DNA from: Escherichia coli
GTDB lineage: Bacteria > Pseudomonadota > Gammaproteobacteria > Enterobacterales > Enterobacteriaceae
Direction: 5' to 3' (one strand)
Assembly (NCBI RefSeq): GCF_044324785.1
Contig: NZ_CP172128.1
DNA length: 64,000 nucleotides
Shown: positions 3,644-62,390 of the stretch, piece after piece
Layout: each line of letters opens with the position of its first letter
How positions within the stretch are numbered: the stretch's first letter is position 1
The notes under the pieces: generated by a model
Databases searched by the model: none
Told to the model about the DNA's origin: nothing
Seen by the model: only the letters and a program-made list of their open reading frames with translations
Program-made: the position numbers and the translations under genes

Positions 3644-4980
3644 TGAGCTGGCCCCCTGAAACACCAGACAGTAGATGTATCTTAAAATAAGAGGTAGGCT
3701 TGGATATATGTCTAACACTAGTTCTAATTTTGAGATGGCTGGCGTTTTGTTAGGAAAAGAGGTGCGTAAACGTAAAACACCTCAGGAAAAAATCACAATT
3801 ATTCAACAGACTATGGAGCCAGGCATGACGGTGTCTCACGTGGCGCGTTTGCATGGAATTCAGCCCAGCCTGTTGTTTAAGTGGAAAAAACAATACCAGG
3901 AAGGAAGTCTCACTGCTGTGGCTGCGGGTGAAGACGTTGTTCCTGCTTCTGAACTGGCCGCTGCGATAAAGCAGATTAATCAGCTTCAGCGTTTACTGGG
4001 CAAGAAAACAATGGAAGTTGAGCTCCTCAAAGAAGCGGTGGAGTACGCGCAATCGCGAAAATGGATAGCGCATGTGCCCTTGTTACCTTCGGACAAGGAA
4101 TAGCCCCGGTAAGCCGTGTTCTGGGCGTGTCGCGTGCGCAGTTAACATTACGGATGAAGGCATCTGATAACAAGACAGATAAACGGCGTCAGAGACGCGA
4201 TGAGGCTGCGGATGCAGAAGTCTTATCGCGCATCCTGGATATCATTGGCGATATGCCAACATATGGGTATCGCCGTGTCTGGGCGATACCCAGACGGCAG
4301 TCCCGAAATGAAGGCCTGCCGTTCGTGAATGCAAAACGCGTTTACCGGATAATGAGCGAAAACAGCCTGTTGTTGTTGCATGACAAACCATCACGACCTC
4401 AGCGGGCACATAAAGGCCGTGTAGAGGTTAATAAAAGCGACCAGCGTTGGTGTTCCAATGGCTTTGAGTTCGGTTGCGATGATGGCGAAAAAGTCCGGGT
4501 TACGTTCGCCCTGGACTGTTGCGATCGTGAAGCTATCGACTGGGCAGCCAGTACGGGAGGTTACGATAAATCGACAGTGCAGGATGTGATGTTAGGCGCG
4601 ATAGAAAAACGCTTTGGCGATAAAGTGCCGGAACAGTCGATCCAGTGGCTGACAGATAACGATTCAGCGTACAGAGCGCATGAAACACGGCAGTTCGCCA
4701 GAGAGCTGAATCTGGAGCCCTGTACGACGGCAGTCAGCAGTCCTCAGAGTAATGGAATGGCAGAACGGTTCGTGAAAACGATGAAGGAAGACTACATCGC
4801 GTTCATGCCGAAACCGAATGTAAGAACGGCAGTGCATAACCTTGCAGTGGCGATCGAGCATTATAACGAATGGCATCCGCATAGTGCACTGGGTTATCGC
4901 TCGCCACGGGAATATCTGCGGCAGCAGGCCAGTAATGGGTTAAGTGATAACAGGTGTCTGGAAATATAGGGGCAAATCCA
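3644..4980 (+). mobile_element. IS3-family insertion sequence, IS2-like variant (orfA 3675-4103, orfB 4061-4969)
   Basis: overlapping orfA/orfB typical of IS3 family; orfB C-terminus and right end (GGAAATATAGGGGCAAATCCA) identical to IS2; left end TGAGCTGGCCCCCTGAA resembles IS2 IRL; no clear target duplication. Confidence 0.7.
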
Positions 4981-6096: not shown

Positions 6097-6579
6097 AAGA
6101 AGACGGCCGGCGGGCGGAATACGGCACGCTACCTGGGTCGTTATCTGAAGAAGCCACCAATAGCGGCTTCCCGGCTGGCACATTACAACGGAGGGGCGAG
6201 CCTGAGCTTCCGTTACCTGGACCACAAAACGGGAGAGACAGCGACGGAAACGCTGACGCAGCGTGAGCTGGTCGCGAGGATGAAACAGCACATCCCGGAG
6301 AAGTTTTTTAAGATGGTGAGGTACTTCGGGTTCCTTGCCAACCGGGGGTGTGGAGAGAAGCTGCCGCAGGTGTACCGAGCTCTGGGGATGGATAAACCGG
6401 AACCGGTGGCGAAAGTGTGCTATGCACAAATGGTGAAACAGTTCCTGAGTCGTGACCCGTTCGAATGCGTGCTGTGTGGCAGCCGGATGGTATACCGCCG
6501 GGCCCTTGCGGGGCTGAATGTATCAGGGCTGAAGAAAAACGCGCGGGATATCAGTCTGCTGAGGTATGTGCCGGCCTGA
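6097..6579 (+). pseudogene. IS91-family transposase, C-terminal fragment
   Basis: in-frame translation ...YLGRYLKKPPIAASRLAHYNG...VRYFGFLANRG... resembles IS91-family transposase C-termini; 5' part replaced by the Tn21-type IR. Confidence 0.5.
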
Positions 6580-25433: not shown

Positions 25434-26989
25434 GCATTTAGCTCCTTTTTCTGCAACTGAGTCTGTGCAACGGTGCTGGCCCATAGCGCCGCCTGTGCAT
25501 TGCTGTTGGCAATGATGACGCCTGCATTTTGTAGTGAGCTTATCTGCTGACTGCGTATTTGCGGATCAGCTTCTGTTCCGCAAACGTGGGCAATCAGCAA
25601 CGGTGCATTATTCATGTCGATGTGTGAAAGTTGGTCCAGTAATTCGCTGACAGGCGTAGCGGAGGTGCCATAACCAAGTACAAGGTCGAATAACACAACG
25701 GCAGTATGTGAGTCGTTGAGTTCGTTGAGCAGACGTTGATTGCGCAGAGTCGGGTCGATCATTGGATGCGGTTTGCCACGGGTGAAATCATCGTCCCCCA
25801 TATCAATCAGTGTATGATCTTCACTTTGCCAGATATTTGCCAGAGCACGATTACCCGCAACTGGCGTATTGGAGGCGGCATGGAATCCCTTTTGTTGGCA
25901 GATAAGCTGAGCTTCGTAACAGAAGGTTCCTCCGGCGAAAACACCGCGTATCGCCTGGCGATGGACTGGCAGACTTTGGCAGGCGTTTTGTAACATTGTG
26001 AGATCGTCGCAGGAAACCTCGTTCTCGACAGCCGGAAGTGGCTGATCATTCAGTAACGCCACAGCGATGTCGGCGGCGCTGGCAAGTGTGGTGGCGGCAG
26101 TGATATTGGGACGTGCCAGATCATGCGGATTCGCCCCGAGGAAATTCACCACCACGGGTTTTCCACAAGCCTCGGCGCGCTCCAGAATAGTCCGGGCAAC
26201 GATCGGTGAAGGCGGTTTTGAAATAAGAACAATCACGTGAGTTTCATCGTCTTGTGCCAGCGCATCTAAAGCAAAGAGCATTGATATTCCACCAATCTCT
26301 TCACTGAGATCATGTCCGCCTGTTCCCAACGCCTGAGAAATACCCGCTCCGAGCTGGTCGATTCGGCAAGTCACTTCCTGTAGCCCGGTGCCTGACGCGC
26401 CAATAACACCAATTGCTCCGCGTTTCACCACATTAGCGAAGCCTAACGGAATGCCGTTAACAATGGCGGTTCCACAGTCAGGTCCCATTACGATACGCTG
26501 ACGTTCTCGGGCAAGCGTTTTGATGTATTTTTCCTGCCCGATACTGACGTTATCGCTGAACATCATCACGTTCATTCCGAGGTTTAACGCTTTAATTGCT
26601 TCGGCGGCGGCGTAGTCTCCCGGTACAGAAATGAGTGCCAGGTTGGCTTCGGGTTCAGCTTCCAGTGCCATTTCCAGGCTGACCTTTTCCGGTGATTTAA
26701 TGCCACAATCCGTTTCATCATCGGGTTTGCTGGTCAGACGTTGCTGGGCCAGTAGCAGTGCTTCATTGCAAATATCTTCTTCACCCATGACTGCAATCAC
26801 TAAATCATTGGGACTGGCGTTGATTTCGTTACCCAGACCCGCATCGCGCAATTGCTCGAGATTATTGGGTGTTCCCATGACGACCGAGGCCTGTTGAATA
26901 CCGGGCAACTTGCTGATTTGCGCGGAAATCTGCATCAGAGAAACTGAGTCCTGATAAAGATTACTGAAAACTTTATATTTAACTTTCAT
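25430..26989 (-). CDS. FdrA-like protein (YahF-type, succinyl-CoA-synthetase-alpha-like fold)
   Basis: ~519 aa, CoA-ligase/NAD-binding Rossmann-like N-domain; start taken at MKVKYKVF. Confidence 0.65.
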   Translation of the reverse strand: MKVKYKVFSNLYQDSVSLMQISAQISKLPGIQQASVVMGTPNNLEQLRDAGLGNEINASPNDLVIAVMGEEDICNEALLLAQQRLTSKPDDETDCGIKSPEKVSLEMALEAEPEANLALISVPGDYAAAEAIKALNLGMNVMMFSDNVSIGQEKYIKTLARERQRIVMGPDCGTAIVNGIPLGFANVVKRGAIGVIGASGTGLQEVTCRIDQLGAGISQALGTGGHDLSEEIGGISMLFALDALAQDDETHVIVLISKPPSPIVARTILERAEACGKPVVVNFLGANPHDLARPNITAATTLASAADIAVALLNDQPLPAVENEVSCDDLTMLQNACQSLPVHRQAIRGVFAGGTFCYEAQLICQQKGFHAASNTPVAGNRALANIWQSEDHTLIDMGDDDFTRGKPHPMIDPTLRNQRLLNELNDSHTAVVLFDLVLGYGTSATPVSELLDQLSHIDMNNAPLLIAHVCGTEADPQIRSQQISSLQNAGVIIANSNAQAALWASTVAQTQLQKKELNA

Positions 26990-50835: not shown

Positions 50836-51403
50836 ACTTCGGCTCCCGGCTGCCTGGCGGCATCCGGTCGTCAGGCCCGACTACGACAGGCAGCTGCTTG
50901 CGCACCCGCCAGTCTCCGCCGAACCCGCTGGCGCGGTTTCGGGCTGTCGCTACGGTCCGATGCGTGAAAAACCGGGCTTGCAGCGACCGTTCCGGTCGCG
51001 CCGCCTCTGTCGCGCCGTGACCTGCGCTCCCTGCACACCTGACGGTGTGTGAGGAAACTGCGCCTGATGGCGCAGCAGTCTTCCCTCCTGCCGCCACCTC
51101 TGCGGCCTGTTTCCCGCTGTGGACTTTCCGGGGGGCAGACGTAACCCCCTCCCGTTCCATCTGTCCAGGGTGAGATGCACCGGCCACAAAATTTTTAGCC
51201 ATGAACCCGGCTAAAAATTTTGCGTCCGCCCCCGGACAGCTGTCCCGTGAGGCGGTAAACGGGCCCCCATCGGAAAGGTCCACTGCGGGGAGAAACCCCT
51301 GTGAAGTGGACGGCAGGAGGAGCTTTCGCTCCTCTGAAGGGGCACATGAACGTCCCGTCGCCGGTATCCGGTTTATCTCACATCTTTCAGTCAGGAGGTT
51401 CTT
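50836..51403 (+). repeat. GC-rich structured leading-region repeat, type A copy 1 (Frpo/ssi-like)
   Basis: homologous to 57192-57739 and 60527-60897; ends at ssb start. Confidence 0.6.
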
Positions 51404-57191: not shown

Positions 57192-57739
57192 TTCGGCTCC
57201 CGGCTGCCTGGCGGCATCCGGTCGTCAGGCCCGACTCCGACAGGCAGCTGCTGGCGCACCCGCCAGTCTCCGCCGAACCCGCTGGCGCGGTTTCGGGCTG
57301 CCGCTACGGTCCGATGTCTGAAAAACCAGGCCTGCAGCGACCGTTCCGGTCGCGCCGCCCCTGTCGCGCCGGAAACGGCGCTCCCTGCACACCTGACGGT
57401 GTGTAAGGCCACTGCGCCTGATGGCGCAGTTGTCTGCCCTTCCGCCGCCACCCCTGCGGCCTGTTTCCCGCTGTGGACTTTCCGGGGGCTGAAGCGGCCA
57501 CAACACGTTTCAGCCGTCCAGGGGAGAGATGTACCAGCCACAAAACTTTTTGCCGCAGGCGTCAAAAACTTTTGCGTCTGCCCCCGGACAACTGCCCCGT
57601 GCCGTGGCAGTCGCTGCCCCATCGGAAAGGTCCACTGCGGGGAGAAACCCCGAAGAAGTGGACGGCAGAAGGGGCTTTCGCCCCTCCGGGGAATAACCGG
57701 TCGGCCCGGCGACCTGATTCAGCAGAAGGAGACTTTTTC
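57192..57739 (+). repeat. GC-rich structured leading-region repeat, type A copy 2 (Frpo/ssi-like)
   Basis: homologous to 50836-51403 and 60527-60897. Confidence 0.6.
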
Positions 57740-58266: not shown

Positions 58267-58533
58267 ATGAGACCATCAATTATCTTCGCAACCGCCGAGT
58301 ATGTAAAGCGTCTGCGTGAAGAGTGCCGGCGGGAGAACAAACCCCTGCACCGCCATACCCGCTTCAGACGCCAGGAACTGGCACCGGATGAGATTAACCC
58401 GGACGTCCTGGCGATGGGCGGTCATATCGCCAGACGCTGCAGTGAGCGGAAGCGGGTGCGTATCCCCGCCATGAAAGTCAGCGAATGGGGCCACCTGCTC
58501 CGCGCGCTTGAAATTGAACGGGTCTGCCACTGA
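58267..58533 (+). CDS. hypothetical small basic protein
   Basis: 88-aa ORF; weak support. Confidence 0.3.
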   Translation: MRPSIIFATAEYVKRLREECRRENKPLHRHTRFRRQELAPDEINPDVLAMGGHIARRCSERKRVRIPAMKVSEWGHLLRALEIERVCH

Positions 58534-58597
58534 TTACCCCTTGCCGTCTGCCTGTGCAGGCGGCAGGATACGTTCAGACATCTCACCAGGAGGAACC

Positions 58598-59560
58598 GTG
58601 AGTAAGAAGAAAAACACCACAACGCCCACGCCGCATGATGCTGCGTTCCGGTCGTTCCTGGCGAATCCCGACGTCGCCAGAGATTTTCTGGAACTGCATC
58701 TTCCGGCGGAGTACCGGCAGTTGTGCGACCTGTCCACGCTGAAGCTGGAACCCGCCACCTTTGTTGAGCCGGACCTGCATCAGTACGCCAGCGATATCCT
58801 CTGGAGTGTGAAAACCACCGGGGGTGAAGACGGCTATGTTTATACGCTCATCGAGCACCAGAGCACCGAAAATCTGTACATGCCTTTCCGCATGATACGT
58901 TACAGTGTGGCGGCGATGCAGAGACATCTGGAGCAGCACAAAACATTGCCACTGGTGATTCCGGTGCTGTTCTATCATGGTGAGCGCAGCCCGTACCCGT
59001 ACAGCATGAACTGGCTGGACTGTTTTGAGGATCCGGCGCTTGCGGCTAAAATATACACAAAGCCGTTTCCGCTGGTTGATATCACTGTCGTTGATGACAA
59101 TGAAATCATGAACCATCGCCGGATGGCCGCACTGACGCTGCTGATGAAGCATATCCGCCATCGTGACATGATGGAGCTGCTGGACAAACTCCCGCAGGTC
59201 ATGGTGGAAATTTCAGACGAGCAGGTGCGTGTTCTGATTCATTACATCGTTAACGCAGGGGACTCTGTATCACCGGAATTTATGCGGGCGCTGGCTGAGC
59301 GTCTGCCGCAGCATGAGGATAAACTGATGACTATTGCCGAACGTCTTGAGCAGCAAGGAATACAGAAAGGAATACAGCAGGGAATACAGCAGGGAATACA
59401 GCAGGGAATACAGCAGGGAATACAGCAGGGAATACAGAAAGGCCGCATGGAGGAGAAGCAGGATATTGCGCGTCAGCTTCAGAAAACGGGAATGCCATCT
59501 GCACAAATCTGTCAGATCACCGGACTTTCCGAAGCTGAACTGAAGAACATCACTCACTGA
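58598..59560 (+). CDS. Rpn-family (YhgA-like) recombination-promoting nuclease / putative transposase
   Basis: GTG start after AGGAGG RBS; N-terminus ..TPHDAAFRSFLANPDVARDFLELHLP.. and ..YTLIEHQS.. typical of Rpn/YhgA PD-(D/E)XK proteins; C-terminal (GIQQ)x7 repeat. Confidence 0.7.
   Translation: MSKKKNTTTPTPHDAAFRSFLANPDVARDFLELHLPAEYRQLCDLSTLKLEPATFVEPDLHQYASDILWSVKTTGGEDGYVYTLIEHQSTENLYMPFRMIRYSVAAMQRHLEQHKTLPLVIPVLFYHGERSPYPYSMNWLDCFEDPALAAKIYTKPFPLVDITVVDDNEIMNHRRMAALTLLMKHIRHRDMMELLDKLPQVMVEISDEQVRVLIHYIVNAGDSVSPEFMRALAERLPQHEDKLMTIAERLEQQGIQKGIQQGIQQGIQQGIQQGIQQGIQKGRMEEKQDIARQLQKTGMPSAQICQITGLSEAELKNITH
59357..59440 (+). repeat. in-frame 12-bp tandem repeat x7 (GGAATACAGCAG) encoding (GIQQ)n inside rpn-like gene
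   Basis: perfect tandem copies visible directly. Confidence 0.85.
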
Positions 59561-59571
59561 TGAGAACCACA

Positions 59572-59598
59572 AAGCCCGGCAAAATGCCGGGTTTTTTT
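59572..59598 (+). terminator. rho-independent terminator-like hairpin
   Basis: AAAGCCCGGCAAAATGCCGGGTTTTTTTG. Confidence 0.6.
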
Positions 59599-59622
59599 GT
59601 CAGCAGGAGCAGAGCAAACAGC

Positions 59623-59784
59623 ATGACGATTGCAGAACGTCTTGAGCAAAAAGGTCGCCAGGAAGGAGCGCTTGAAAAAGCCCTGGCCATTGCGTGCCAG
59701 CTTCAGAAAATGGGGATGACGCCGGAGCAGATTAAGCAGGCTACCGGACTGTCCGAAGCTGAACTGAAAAAAATCATTCACTGA
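59623..59784 (+). CDS. stand-alone Rpn C-terminal-domain paralog (53 aa)
   Basis: MTIAERLEQKG..GLSEAELKKIIH parallels the C-terminus of the upstream Rpn-like protein. Confidence 0.45.
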   Translation: MTIAERLEQKGRQEGALEKALAIACQLQKMGMTPEQIKQATGLSEAELKKIIH

Positions 59785-59794
59785 TGAGAGCATC

Positions 59795-59822
59795 ACAGCC
59801 CGGCAGAATGCCGGGCTTTTTT
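59795..59822 (+). terminator. rho-independent terminator-like hairpin
   Basis: CAGCCCGGCAGAATGCCGGGCTTTTTTG. Confidence 0.6.
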
Positions 59823-59842: not shown

Positions 59843-60037
59843 ATGACTATTGCAGAACGTCTTATACAGAAAGGTTTCGACGAGGGTTTTAAACAAGGTT
59901 TTAAACAAGGGGCTCTTGAAGTGGCGCGGGAAATAGCCTGCCGGCTGCGGGATATAGGCTGGCCGCCGGAACGGATTCAGGAGGTCACGGGACTTTCCGG
60001 TGAAGAACTGAAAAAGCTGTTTCCTGATGAGCAGTAG
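59843..60037 (+). CDS. stand-alone Rpn C-terminal-domain paralog (64 aa)
   Basis: MTIAERLIQKG..GLSGEELKKLF parallels the same domain. Confidence 0.45.
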   Translation: MTIAERLIQKGFDEGFKQGFKQGALEVAREIACRLRDIGWPPERIQEVTGLSGEELKKLFPDEQ

Positions 60038-60068
60038 CCTGGCATTCAGCCAGGCTGTGAATCACCGC

Positions 60069-60320
60069 TCACACATCCTCTGCCGTTTCCCCCAGTTCAT
60101 TTTCCAGTCGCCTGATGATATCTGCCTTACGCATCCCCTGCATGTGAGGCAGCAGGTCACGGACTGAAAGAGCCTGGGTGGTCCTCCAGACGGTGACGTC
60201 CACCTGTTCCGCATTTTCCCAGGCGTGCCATGTTCTCTGCGTCACGCCAAATTCTCTGGCCGCTTTTTCGCGTGACCAGAGCATGCTTTTTCGCCAGATT
60301 CGCAGTTCCCAGCCGGTCAT
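60069..60320 (-). CDS. small HTH-type DNA-binding protein, putative
   Basis: 83-aa ORF; inverted repeat AAAGTGAAAAAACTTCACTTT just upstream of its start. Confidence 0.4.
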   Translation of the reverse strand: MTGWELRIWRKSMLWSREKAAREFGVTQRTWHAWENAEQVDVTVWRTTQALSVRDLLPHMQGMRKADIIRRLENELGETAEDV

Positions 60321-60526
60321 AAAACACCTTTGAAAAAGTGAAAAAACTTCACTTTATTTTATCATCATAATCATCAAATCAGCGCGATAAATAAGTGTAA
60401 AAAAATGAAGAAATTTCACTTTTTTTTGCTTGTAAATGTCGTGCGGTTTTCTCTGTTTTCACCTGTGCGGGAGTGGTGTGCCAGTGACCACCACATGCCA
60501 TTGTTGTGCCGTCGTTTTTCTTCAGT

Positions 60527-60897
60527 CGCGCCGTATGCGGCGCTCCCTGCACACCTTACGGTGTGTAAGGCCACTGCGCCTGATGGCGCAGCTGTCTCTG
60601 CCTGTCTGCCGCCGCACTGCGGCCTGTTCTCCGCAGACGGACTTTCCGGGGGTACATACATGACCACATCCCGTTTCAGTCGTCCAGGGGAGAGATGTAC
60701 CAGCCACAAAACTTTTTGCCGCAGGCGTCAAAAACTTTTGCGTCTGCCCCCGGACAACTGCCCCGTGACGTGGTGAGCGTCCCCCGTCGGAAAGGTCCAC
60801 TGCGGGGAAATCCCCGAAGACCCGGACGGCAGAAGGAGCTTCGCTCCTCCGGGAAATGACCTGGCTGACCCGGCAGTCGTGACGATGAGGAGACAAT
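60527..60897 (+). repeat. GC-rich structured leading-region repeat, type A copy 3 (Frpo/ssi-like)
   Basis: homologous to the 3' ~370 bp of the other type A copies. Confidence 0.6.
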
Positions 60898-60900
60898 GTG

Positions 60901-61749
60901 ATGAATCAGACTTTACCCACTGCTGACCTGAATACTGCCGGCACGACAGATGTTATTCCGTCTGTGGCTATCGACCGCATCATCGCGCAGCGTAACGAAG
61001 GTATTGCACTGTTCATGCAGGCGATGGAATGCCTGGCGACAGCGCGCAAGATTCTGCTCGATGCGTCAGGTGATATTTTTCTTTACGGGTTTGAAGACTG
61101 CGTGACTGATTCCGTTCGTCGCATAGATAAACCGGAAGAAGCGAAAAGGAATATCACCCGTCTTGCCGACCGGAAAATCTGGGAGCGCCTGATGACAGAT
61201 ACGGGCATGTACACCTTCATGAGTTCATGCCAGCGTGATGAGTGGAACAGCCAGCTGATGAGCGACACCTGTCCTGAAATCACCCTGGACAATGTACTGG
61301 CAACATTCCGCCATCTGAATGCCTGCAAGATGCAGACATTTGAACAGGGACTGATTGATGTCTACCGGAAATTGTCATGGGATTACAGAACCAATAATCC
61401 CTGCCGTCTGGGTAAGAAAATCATTATTGAAAACCTGCTGTACCGCTGGAGTAACGGGCGTGTGACGCTGGACTGCAGCGGACGGGAGGCACTGGATGAC
61501 CTGGTACGTCCGTTTTATCTGCTGGAGGGGCGCAACGTTCCTGACTTCAGGAACAGCATCGGGGCGCAGTATGGTGAATTTCTCGGGAACGGCGACAATG
61601 TCGGTAAGCTGTTAGAAGGGGAATATTTTACGGTGCGTGGCTACCAGAAAGGGACCGTACACATTGTCTTTAATCGTTCTGACCTTGTTGAAAAACTGAA
61701 TGATATTATTGCACGGCATTATCCAGGTGTATTGCCGCCACGAGTCTGA
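60901..61749 (+). CDS. hypothetical leading-region protein (282 aa)
   Basis: GAGGAG RBS; long ORF ending at a strong terminator; not recognised. Confidence 0.5.
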   Translation: MNQTLPTADLNTAGTTDVIPSVAIDRIIAQRNEGIALFMQAMECLATARKILLDASGDIFLYGFEDCVTDSVRRIDKPEEAKRNITRLADRKIWERLMTDTGMYTFMSSCQRDEWNSQLMSDTCPEITLDNVLATFRHLNACKMQTFEQGLIDVYRKLSWDYRTNNPCRLGKKIIIENLLYRWSNGRVTLDCSGREALDDLVRPFYLLEGRNVPDFRNSIGAQYGEFLGNGDNVGKLLEGEYFTVRGYQKGTVHIVFNRSDLVEKLNDIIARHYPGVLPPRV

Positions 61750-62289: not shown

Positions 62290-62390
62290 TATAATGGCCT
62301 GAAAAACGGGACAGGATGTGTAATCGTATAACCGCGCACACACGGCTATACGATTACCACCTGGTCAGGGCTTAGCCCCGACACCCCGGT
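62290..62390 (+). promoter_or_regulatory. oriT region (putative nic site and NikA binding repeats) with nikA promoter
   Basis: inverted repeats CGTATAACC..GGCTATACG and GGGCTTAGCCC directly upstream of nikA, the expected oriT position in IncI-type transfer modules. Confidence 0.5.

Follow-up and report, generated by a model that had tools for sequence, protein, structure and literature searches.

Leading regions of conjugative plasmids are closely studied anti-defence islands with single-strand promoters, and nearly all of their genes face one way. The locus described here raises the question of what is controlled by a small gene that runs against this flow, encodes a helix-turn-helix (HTH)-like protein and is preceded by an inverted repeat. 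A 64,000 nt stretch of plasmid DNA from Escherichia coli (the window) was analysed, together with the whole 169,272-bp plasmid and related loci. The product of the gene, YgeA, is most likely an autorepressor of the XRE/Aca2-like type; devices of this kind are known and the gene had been annotated before, but its place and orientation are unusual. What is new is a defined candidate operator (AAGTGnA-N5-TnCACTT, in two to three copies), together with a likely promoter and a fold resembling that of Aca2, which turn a 'hypothetical HTH' into a testable module.

Position and orientation of ygeA in the leading region

As the preliminary description had stated, the ORF list of the window contains an 83 aa ORF on the minus strand; it occupies 60069-60320 and has an ATG start. 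A ribosome-binding site, AAGGTG (60330 to 60325, minus strand), is evident in the sequence at a distance of 4 nt from the ATG, which itself lies 15 nt downstream of a perfect 8+5+8 palindrome (60335-60355). The start codon can be regarded as fixed because the N-terminal sequence MTG[WFY]EL is conserved across the family. The ORF, which is predicted to encode a small XRE/Aca2-like HTH protein, is named ygeA in records that use the R64 gene names and has already been annotated by PGAP as 'helix-turn-helix transcriptional regulator' (WP_000148285.1); it belongs to the IncI-type (I-complex) conjugative plasmids. The IncK2/Z plasmid pLH10-b-1-A (NZ_CP100531) matches the window at 100 % identity, and approximately 2,000 plasmid records from Escherichia, Salmonella, Shigella and Klebsiella share the ygeA stretch at 90-99 % identity. 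Comparison of the window with a diverged IncI1 variant (84 % amino-acid identity) gave a dN of 0.097 and a dS of 1.40; the resulting ratio of 0.07 indicates strong purifying selection, and ygeA is a real gene. A literature search covering ygeA, ygfB, yggA, ygdA and leading-region repressors found no study of ygeA. The F plasmid also has a 'ygeA', downstream of Frpo1 on the leading-gene strand (Couturier 2023); this was set aside as a different gene, unrelated to the present one apart from its name, and the annotation of the F leading region contains no HTH gene.

Around ygeA, ardA comes first, then a pndC-like gene, ygdA, the gene for an Rpn nuclease and two small Rpn-C-terminal ORFs, all on the plus strand; these are followed by ygeA (minus), an ssi/Frpo-type element, ygfB (plus), yggA/mobC (minus), oriT and nikA (plus). 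The antisense orientation ascribed to ygeA therefore holds with respect to ardA, the pndC-like gene, rpn and ygfB, all of which are on the plus strand. The gene nearest to oriT, ygfB (60898-61749), encodes a DUF4942 protein and stands behind the third ssi/Frpo-type element (ssi3, 60525-60874, plus strand), a single-strand promoter element that was recognized by its repetition and by similarity to F and that drives ygfB; ssi3 and the ygeA module are arranged back-to-back. The ssi1-3 elements of IncI1 have been described, and ygfB of IncI1 possesses its own ssDNA promoter with a start mapped by 5'-RACE (PMC12672017). Three copies of the element are present in the window (approximately 51006-51334, 57363-57710 and 60525-60874), with a mutual identity of 80-86 %, and part of the third copy resembles the F plasmid upstream of F's own ygeA, the reported place of Frpo1.

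The MOBP nick motif CATCCTG was found on the minus strand (62318 to 62312), next to the oriT inverted repeat. Within the oriT core (62300-62360), this repeat, GTAATCGTATA...TATACGATTAC, occupies 62320-62357, upstream of nikA. The known consensus of MOBP nick sites indicates that the nicked strand is probably the minus strand; it would thus be the transferred strand, with lower coordinates entering first. The leading genes on the plus strand can be transcribed from the incoming single strand, whereas ygeA runs in the sense of the transferred strand and is templated by the complementary strand, which is synthesized in the recipient, so that the gene is unreadable from the incoming single strand.

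This arrangement recurs in published data. In the table of Samuel et al. 2024, HTH-regulator family 22 (2,333 members) has a median position of 2 from oriT on strand -1; position 1 is taken by family 24 (DUF4942/YgfB), and positions 3 and 4 by Rpn-like genes of family 20 and family 18 (RpnB), respectively, and the gene order in the window and in loci L001, L002 and L013 agrees with it. By position, strand, size and neighbours, ygeA appears to be family 22 (representative WP_151333485.1), which was catalogued and is unstudied in that work. It appears to be one of few abundant leading-region families that face the other way and can be read only from double-stranded DNA.

Several further features were observed in the DNA downstream of ygeA. 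The Rpn-family nuclease ORF (58508-59560, plus strand) contains a 12 nt tandem repeat (59339-59466) encoding (QGIQ)n, and the C-terminal segment of Rpn recurs in the two small ORFs behind it (59560-59784 and 59843-60037). These ORFs may encode RpnS-like small partner proteins; the equivalent small ORF of IncI1 loci gave a weak match to PF27070 (HTH_Rpn_C). Two G+C-rich hairpins with 8 nt arms and 5 nt loops were also seen. The first (59797-59817) is followed by a T-run and is terminator-like, behind the 74 aa ORF, and the second (60036-60056), which has no T-run, lies exactly between the convergent 64 aa ORF and ygeA and could terminate both.

Predicted fold and family of YgeA

When queried alone against Pfam, YgeA matched HTH_31 (E 7e-5, 23.5 bits) and HTH_3 (E 0.007, 16.8 bits), scoring in each case below the gathering score (27 and 23, respectively). 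Among the family as a whole, HTH_31 was matched at E<=0.01 by 26 of 28 members and HTH_3 by 25 of 28, with best E values of 1.2e-7 and 8.8e-9, respectively. A DNA-binding fold was predicted by AlphaFold2 with the family alignment (pLDDT 90.1), in agreement with the HTH-like nature originally suggested; a model from the single sequence (pLDDT 53) was useless, and the alignment-based model was used instead. The model folds compactly into five helices (residues 3-12, 17-24, 28-35, 42-60 and 65-80). The unit that reads the DNA is probably formed by helix 2, the turn and helix 3, and helix 28-35, which carries the conserved Arg29, is the predicted recognition helix.

A word-indexed protein search reached only relatives of approximately 80 % identity or more, and an exhaustive HMMER search of 1.84 billion representatives recovered 79 proteins at E<1e-3. 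These are mostly 70-110 aa long and share the pattern MTG[WFY]EL(R/K)xWRxxxxW(S/T)QExAAxxLGVSxRT(Y/W)xxYE. In comparison with generic XRE/Cro-C1 repressors, the YgeA family is very small. Close members were found only in plasmid leading regions. In one relative of 190 aa (P0114), two YgeA-like HTH units are joined head to tail in one polypeptide, which thereby amounts to a single-chain dimer; this natural tandem fusion is consistent with YgeA working as a dimer. Distant members, at about 32-33 % identity, were not solo. In L016 (5001-6668) and L017 (5001-6789), they belong to co-directional operons with a protein of ~130-150 aa, a PLDc_2 or Mrr_cat nuclease-like protein and a protein of ~160 aa; a single upstream GTGACATAATGTCAC palindrome, with the same GTG-N9-CAC spacing, is present in L016.

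The nearest counterpart to the DNA-binding domain is Aca2. Aca2 (anti-CRISPR-associated protein 2) of Pectobacterium phage ZF40 belongs to the DUF1870 group, which includes YdiL and SO3848. Like Aca2, YgeA is predicted to have an Aca2-type N-terminal HTH domain with a conserved arginine in the recognition helix, and two inverted repeats (O1 and O2, see below) lie in its promoter or 5' UTR, although their sequence and spacing differ from the TTCG-core IR1 and IR2 of Aca2. Arg29, which is nearly invariant across the YgeA family, aligns with Aca2 R30, whose substitution by alanine abolishes repression (PMC6765145). The alignment to Aca2 spans residues 1-56 only, YgeA being 83 aa in length compared with 115-125 aa for Aca2, and in the YgeA model only two C-terminal helices appear to be present, without the dimerization domain of Aca2. 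No match to Pfam DUF1870 was obtained with YgeA, even at E<=10, or with 28 relatives. The motif of YgeA is AAGTGAA-N5-TTCACTT, whereas the Aca2 operators have a TTCG core with N6/N8 spacing, and ygeA is monocistronic and on the opposite strand to its neighbours, whereas aca2 lies downstream of an acr gene in one operon; the neighbours of ygeA carry no anti-CRISPR annotation or precomputed anti-CRISPR domain. Because of the missing DUF1870 match, the length of 83 aa, the lack of the C-terminal dimerization domain and the absence of an acr operon, YgeA was not considered a member of the Aca2 family.

Structural similarity of the YgeA model extended to HigA2, MqsA, HipB, C.AhdI and C.EcoT38IS, and weak profile matches to MqsA and HipB were also obtained. 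These similarities, and the methyltransferase-like nature of the neighbouring ygfB product, raise the question of whether YgeA is a type II antitoxin or the controller (C) protein of a restriction-modification system. Such an identity is extremely improbable. ygeA is monocistronic with its neighbours on the other strand, and no co-directional ORF was found beside it in the window or in L001, L002, L003, L009, L013, L015 and L029. An endonuclease gene is absent from the locus, the two putative operators are 67 bp apart rather than laid out as adjacent C-boxes, and the neighbouring DUF4942 gene is divergent, with its own ssDNA promoter. Identification as an antitoxin or C protein was rejected, no partner gene being present. 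More generally, YgeA differs from the XRE/Cro-C1 repressors and HTH antitoxins (434 Cro/cI, P22 C2, SinR, HipB, HigA and MqsA) in that it lacks a partner toxin, a lysis-lysogeny partner and a sensor domain.

Paired palindromes upstream of ygeA and their conservation

The inverted repeat quoted in the preliminary description, AAAGTGAAAAAACTTCACTTT, was located at 60335-60355. This proximal putative operator (O1, AAAGTGAA-AAAAC-TTCACTTT) is a perfect palindrome whose centre lies 25 nt before the ATG, with arms of 8 nt each (60335-60342 and 60348-60355) and a spacer of 5 nt. A distal copy that had been overlooked (O2, AAAATGAA-GAAAT-TTCACTTT; full string AAAATGAAGAAATTTCACTTT) was found at 60402-60422, centred 67 bp from O1. 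It has one mismatch in the window, is a perfect palindrome in L001, L010, L011 and L012, and belongs to a 39 nt direct repeat that lies 67 bp from the first copy. Perfect 8 bp inverted repeats with spacers of 3-8 nt are not rare singly, as 41 occur in the 64-kb window. The ygeA palindrome motif itself, at <=3 mismatches, had three matches in the window where 0.24 would be expected; the best pair, with 0 and 1 mismatch, were both upstream of ygeA. When the degenerate family motif was run against the whole 169,272-bp plasmid at <=1 mismatch, there were three hits compared with 0.41 expected, of which two were the ygeA sites and the third lay inside a 541 aa cargo ORF. This third hit (CAGTGTATGATCTTCACTT, 25808-25826, 1 mismatch to the degenerate motif) was judged to be a chance match.

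Related loci from Pectobacterium, Citrobacter and metagenomic MOBP plasmids carry the motif AAGTGnA-N5-TnCACTT in two to three copies per locus. In L003, L005, L006, L009, L015 and L029 (Citrobacter), whose proteins are 40-50 % identical, there are two to three copies of AAGTGCA-N5-TGCACTT. The Pectobacterium versatile MOBP plasmid (L003) has the same synteny as the window (HTH gene, minus; DUF4942 gene, plus; mobC, minus; nikA, plus), and upstream of its orthologue, which is ~46 % identical to YgeA as judged from the close relative P0112, there are two perfect palindromes, AAAAGTGCA-GAATT-TGCACTTTT and ATAAGTGCA-GATTC-TGCACTTAT. The I-complex plasmids have the half-site GTGAA where the others have GTGCA, and both arms of each site show this change. 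In L013, the IncI1 variant, the two sites are asymmetric at half-site position 6 (AAGTGTA...TTCACTT and AAGTGAA...TACACTT).

The palindromes are duplicated, fixed in position and conserved with the family. Across the close family loci examined, the distance from the ATG back to the centre of the proximal copy was always 24-25 nt, apart from 34 nt in L005, and in all lineages a -10-like hexamer (TAAAAT, TAATAT, TAAATT or TAGAAT) abuts this copy on its upstream side. The distal copy lies 45-67 bp further upstream across the loci, whilst the 5 nt spacer and all of the flanking DNA vary from locus to locus. Exact matches to the motif within the scanned relative loci were exclusively upstream of the HTH gene.

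It was considered whether the palindromes act instead as nucleic-acid hairpins, i.e. as weak intrinsic terminators or attenuators, as protein-bound RNA stem-loops comparable to the IR2 RNA to which Aca2 binds, or as structures in the transferred single strand. O1 and O2 are flanked by A- and T-runs, the copies of several relatives were flagged by the scanner as terminator-like hairpins, and O1 and O2 are mutually complementary (26 nt at 81 %); in addition, a possible post-transcriptional role was raised for the 5' UTR IR2 by the authors of the Aca2 study (PMC6765145). Against this, folding as ssDNA or RNA was no better than that of shuffled sequences (z -1.17 and -0.32), no Rfam family was matched, and the sequence of the arms is itself conserved across lineages, beyond what pairing would demand. 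Pairing is broken at position 6 in both IncI1 sites and in two of the three L009 sites, and since the transcript of ygeA is predicted to start inside O1, the O1 hairpin could not form in it. As arm sequence is conserved whilst single unpaired positions are tolerated, recognition by a protein fits better than a requirement for a hairpin, and the hairpin, terminator, RNA or ssDNA reading, which we regard as very unlikely, was rejected on the folding and Rfam results.

A reciprocal test was made by searching 298 Gb of representative genomes for two perfect copies of the motif 26-56 nt apart. Eight places were found. At two of them the motif pair directly precedes a true YgeA-family gene in the leading region of a MOBP plasmid, namely in L026 from Escherichia sp. 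(HMM E 6e-34) and in L029 from Citrobacter amalonaticus (E 2e-29). Another lay between two HTH genes of a generic Cro/CI-like pair in a MAG of the Christensenellaceae, and in the remaining five no YgeA-like gene was detected alongside, one of these being at a contig end where the neighbour is cut off. Given these five places, the motif is not exclusive to the YgeA family, although the motif pair is strongly associated with it. The Christensenellaceae MAG locus (L023, 1424-1751) has three palindromes with AAGTGAA/AAGTGCA-N5 half-sites between its Cro-like and CI-like HTH genes, and could either have arisen by convergence or be very distantly related to the operator-protein pair of YgeA.

Probable autorepression and possible further targets

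A putative extended -10 sequence of the ygeA promoter, TGaTAAAAT (60364 to 60356, minus strand), was read by eye and abuts O1. The consensus promoter scan of the window gave no sigma-70 site on the ygeA strand, and for this reason the promoter is one that we infer; in L006, the consensus scanner called TGGAAA-18-TAAAAT in the HTH sense, ending at the operator. The arrangement suggests that a YgeA dimer would bind the two 19-21-bp palindromes (AAGTGAA-N5-TTCACTT) with one recognition helix per half-site. O1 would follow the -10 of ygeA such that the predicted transcription start falls inside it, and a bound dimer would therefore exclude RNA polymerase. In this manner YgeA may hold its own expression at a low set point by negative autoregulation, with O2 as an auxiliary site, either of lower affinity or cooperative. 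Since the template of ygeA exists only after synthesis of the complementary strand, YgeA would be a product of the double-stranded phase, and its timing would contrast with that of the surrounding genes, which are driven by ssDNA promoters. YgeA is thus probably a small XRE-type HTH autorepressor with a DNA-binding domain most like that of Aca2, made only from double-stranded DNA. The HTH assignment and the proposal that the inverted repeat is an autoregulatory operator are well supported by these computational results, which add the second copy, O2, and conservation throughout the family.

The further suggestion that YgeA regulates the neighbouring early genes fared differently. Scanning of the whole 169,272-bp plasmid for the motif revealed no operator before ardA, psiB, ssb, the Rpn genes or any tra/pil operon, and the early genes are driven by ssi/Frpo elements, which O1 and O2 do not overlap. 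On this basis a wider plasmid regulon was rejected, and regulation of the early genes by YgeA is not supported, with the possible exception of divergent transcription towards ssi3-ygfB. The situation may be compared with that of the ArdK/KorA-type repressors of IncN pKM101, IncW R388 and IncP plasmids, which are plasmid-encoded in or near the leading region and silence establishment genes in the established plasmid. These regulators have operator copies before several operons; the YgeA motif, unlike theirs, was found before one promoter only, its own. An ArdK-family gene is annotated in the Pectobacterium relative.

A repressor that acts on itself alone brings no obvious benefit, and another target is therefore probably still missing. 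Such targets might lie in trans, either among host genes or at a promoter of a related incoming or co-resident plasmid, in which case YgeA would be a solo regulator whose autoregulation is mere housekeeping. The lack of a second cis target in the plasmid is consistent with this, most aca-like genes are 'solo' and have been proposed to have an 'anti-anti-defence' or immunity-like role (PMC9410906), and some members of the family of Samuel et al. match the aca6 model. No candidate target was identified, however, and the YgeA family is restricted to a single position within the leading regions of plasmids, which speaks for a local role. Principal targets in trans are regarded as quite unlikely.

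A local target would be available if autorepression by YgeA also extended to the other side of O1. A sigma-70 promoter-like site of uncertain function, GTGAAA-16-TATCAT (60338-60365, plus strand), was detected by the promoter scan; its -35 lies inside O1, O2 is ~30-50 nt downstream of its predicted start, and it points towards ssi3 and ygfB. O1 and O2 could then form a bidirectional switch that also shuts this divergent promoter, which would read through ssi3 into ygfB, and YgeA would repress the gene nearest oriT during the double-stranded phase, in the way that Aca proteins repress acr genes. The divergent site is the sole sigma-70-like site in 59900-61000 and recurs in the diverged IncI1 locus L013. 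In every lineage, moreover, a repeated intergenic element of ssDNA-promoter type, followed by the first gene, adjoins the HTH module back-to-back, with the module on the strand opposite to the leading genes, and Aca-family repressors control neighbouring anti-defence operons (bioRxiv 10.64898/2026.07.27.740549). Several observations speak against the switch. The divergent site was not found in L003, L009 and L015, and the L006 scan gave a promoter in the HTH sense only. Its TATCA is the complement of the extended -10 of ygeA, so that its conservation is ambiguous and may be a by-product of that of the -10. The divergent neighbour is also not constant, the first gene behind the element being a DUF4942 gene in the I-complex and Pectobacterium and a member of a ~140 aa family in L006, L009 and L015, and ygfB already has the ssDNA promoter that was mapped by 5'-RACE in IncI1 (PMC12672017). 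A bidirectional switch is accordingly regarded as a tentative extension of autorepression, and one that is more probably wrong than right.

At its most far-reaching, YgeA would be a plasmid counterpart of Aca that is wired to the state of the DNA, an establishment timer that is made once the leading region is double-stranded, closes the divergent promoter beside the oriT-proximal ssDNA promoter and thereby, in established plasmids, silences ygfB or an equivalent first-entering anti-defence candidate, with the resident copy possibly acting on related incoming plasmids as well. This is speculative, and we hold it to be unlikely. Were it true, the HTH module and the ssDNA-promoter element, whose pairing is conserved in several plasmid lineages, would function as one unit, and new anti-defence genes could be recognized by the YgeA-like genes beside them. 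In practical terms, it matters whether IncI/K/Z resistance plasmids, once established, use YgeA to quiet the genes nearest oriT. If YgeA is merely an autorepressor, the result for ygeA amounts to a routine refinement of its annotation.

The intergenic element beside the HTH module is of a different type in some of the relatives on other MOBP plasmids. In L009 it is repeated upstream of leading-region operons (2382-2545, 4304-4780 and 6218-6560), and the same element is present in L006 (614-1086) and L015 (3069-3298), with the HTH module abutting one copy. blast comparison of this L009-type element with the ssi elements of the window and with the F plasmid gave no detectable similarity, and it may represent another class of single-strand promoter.
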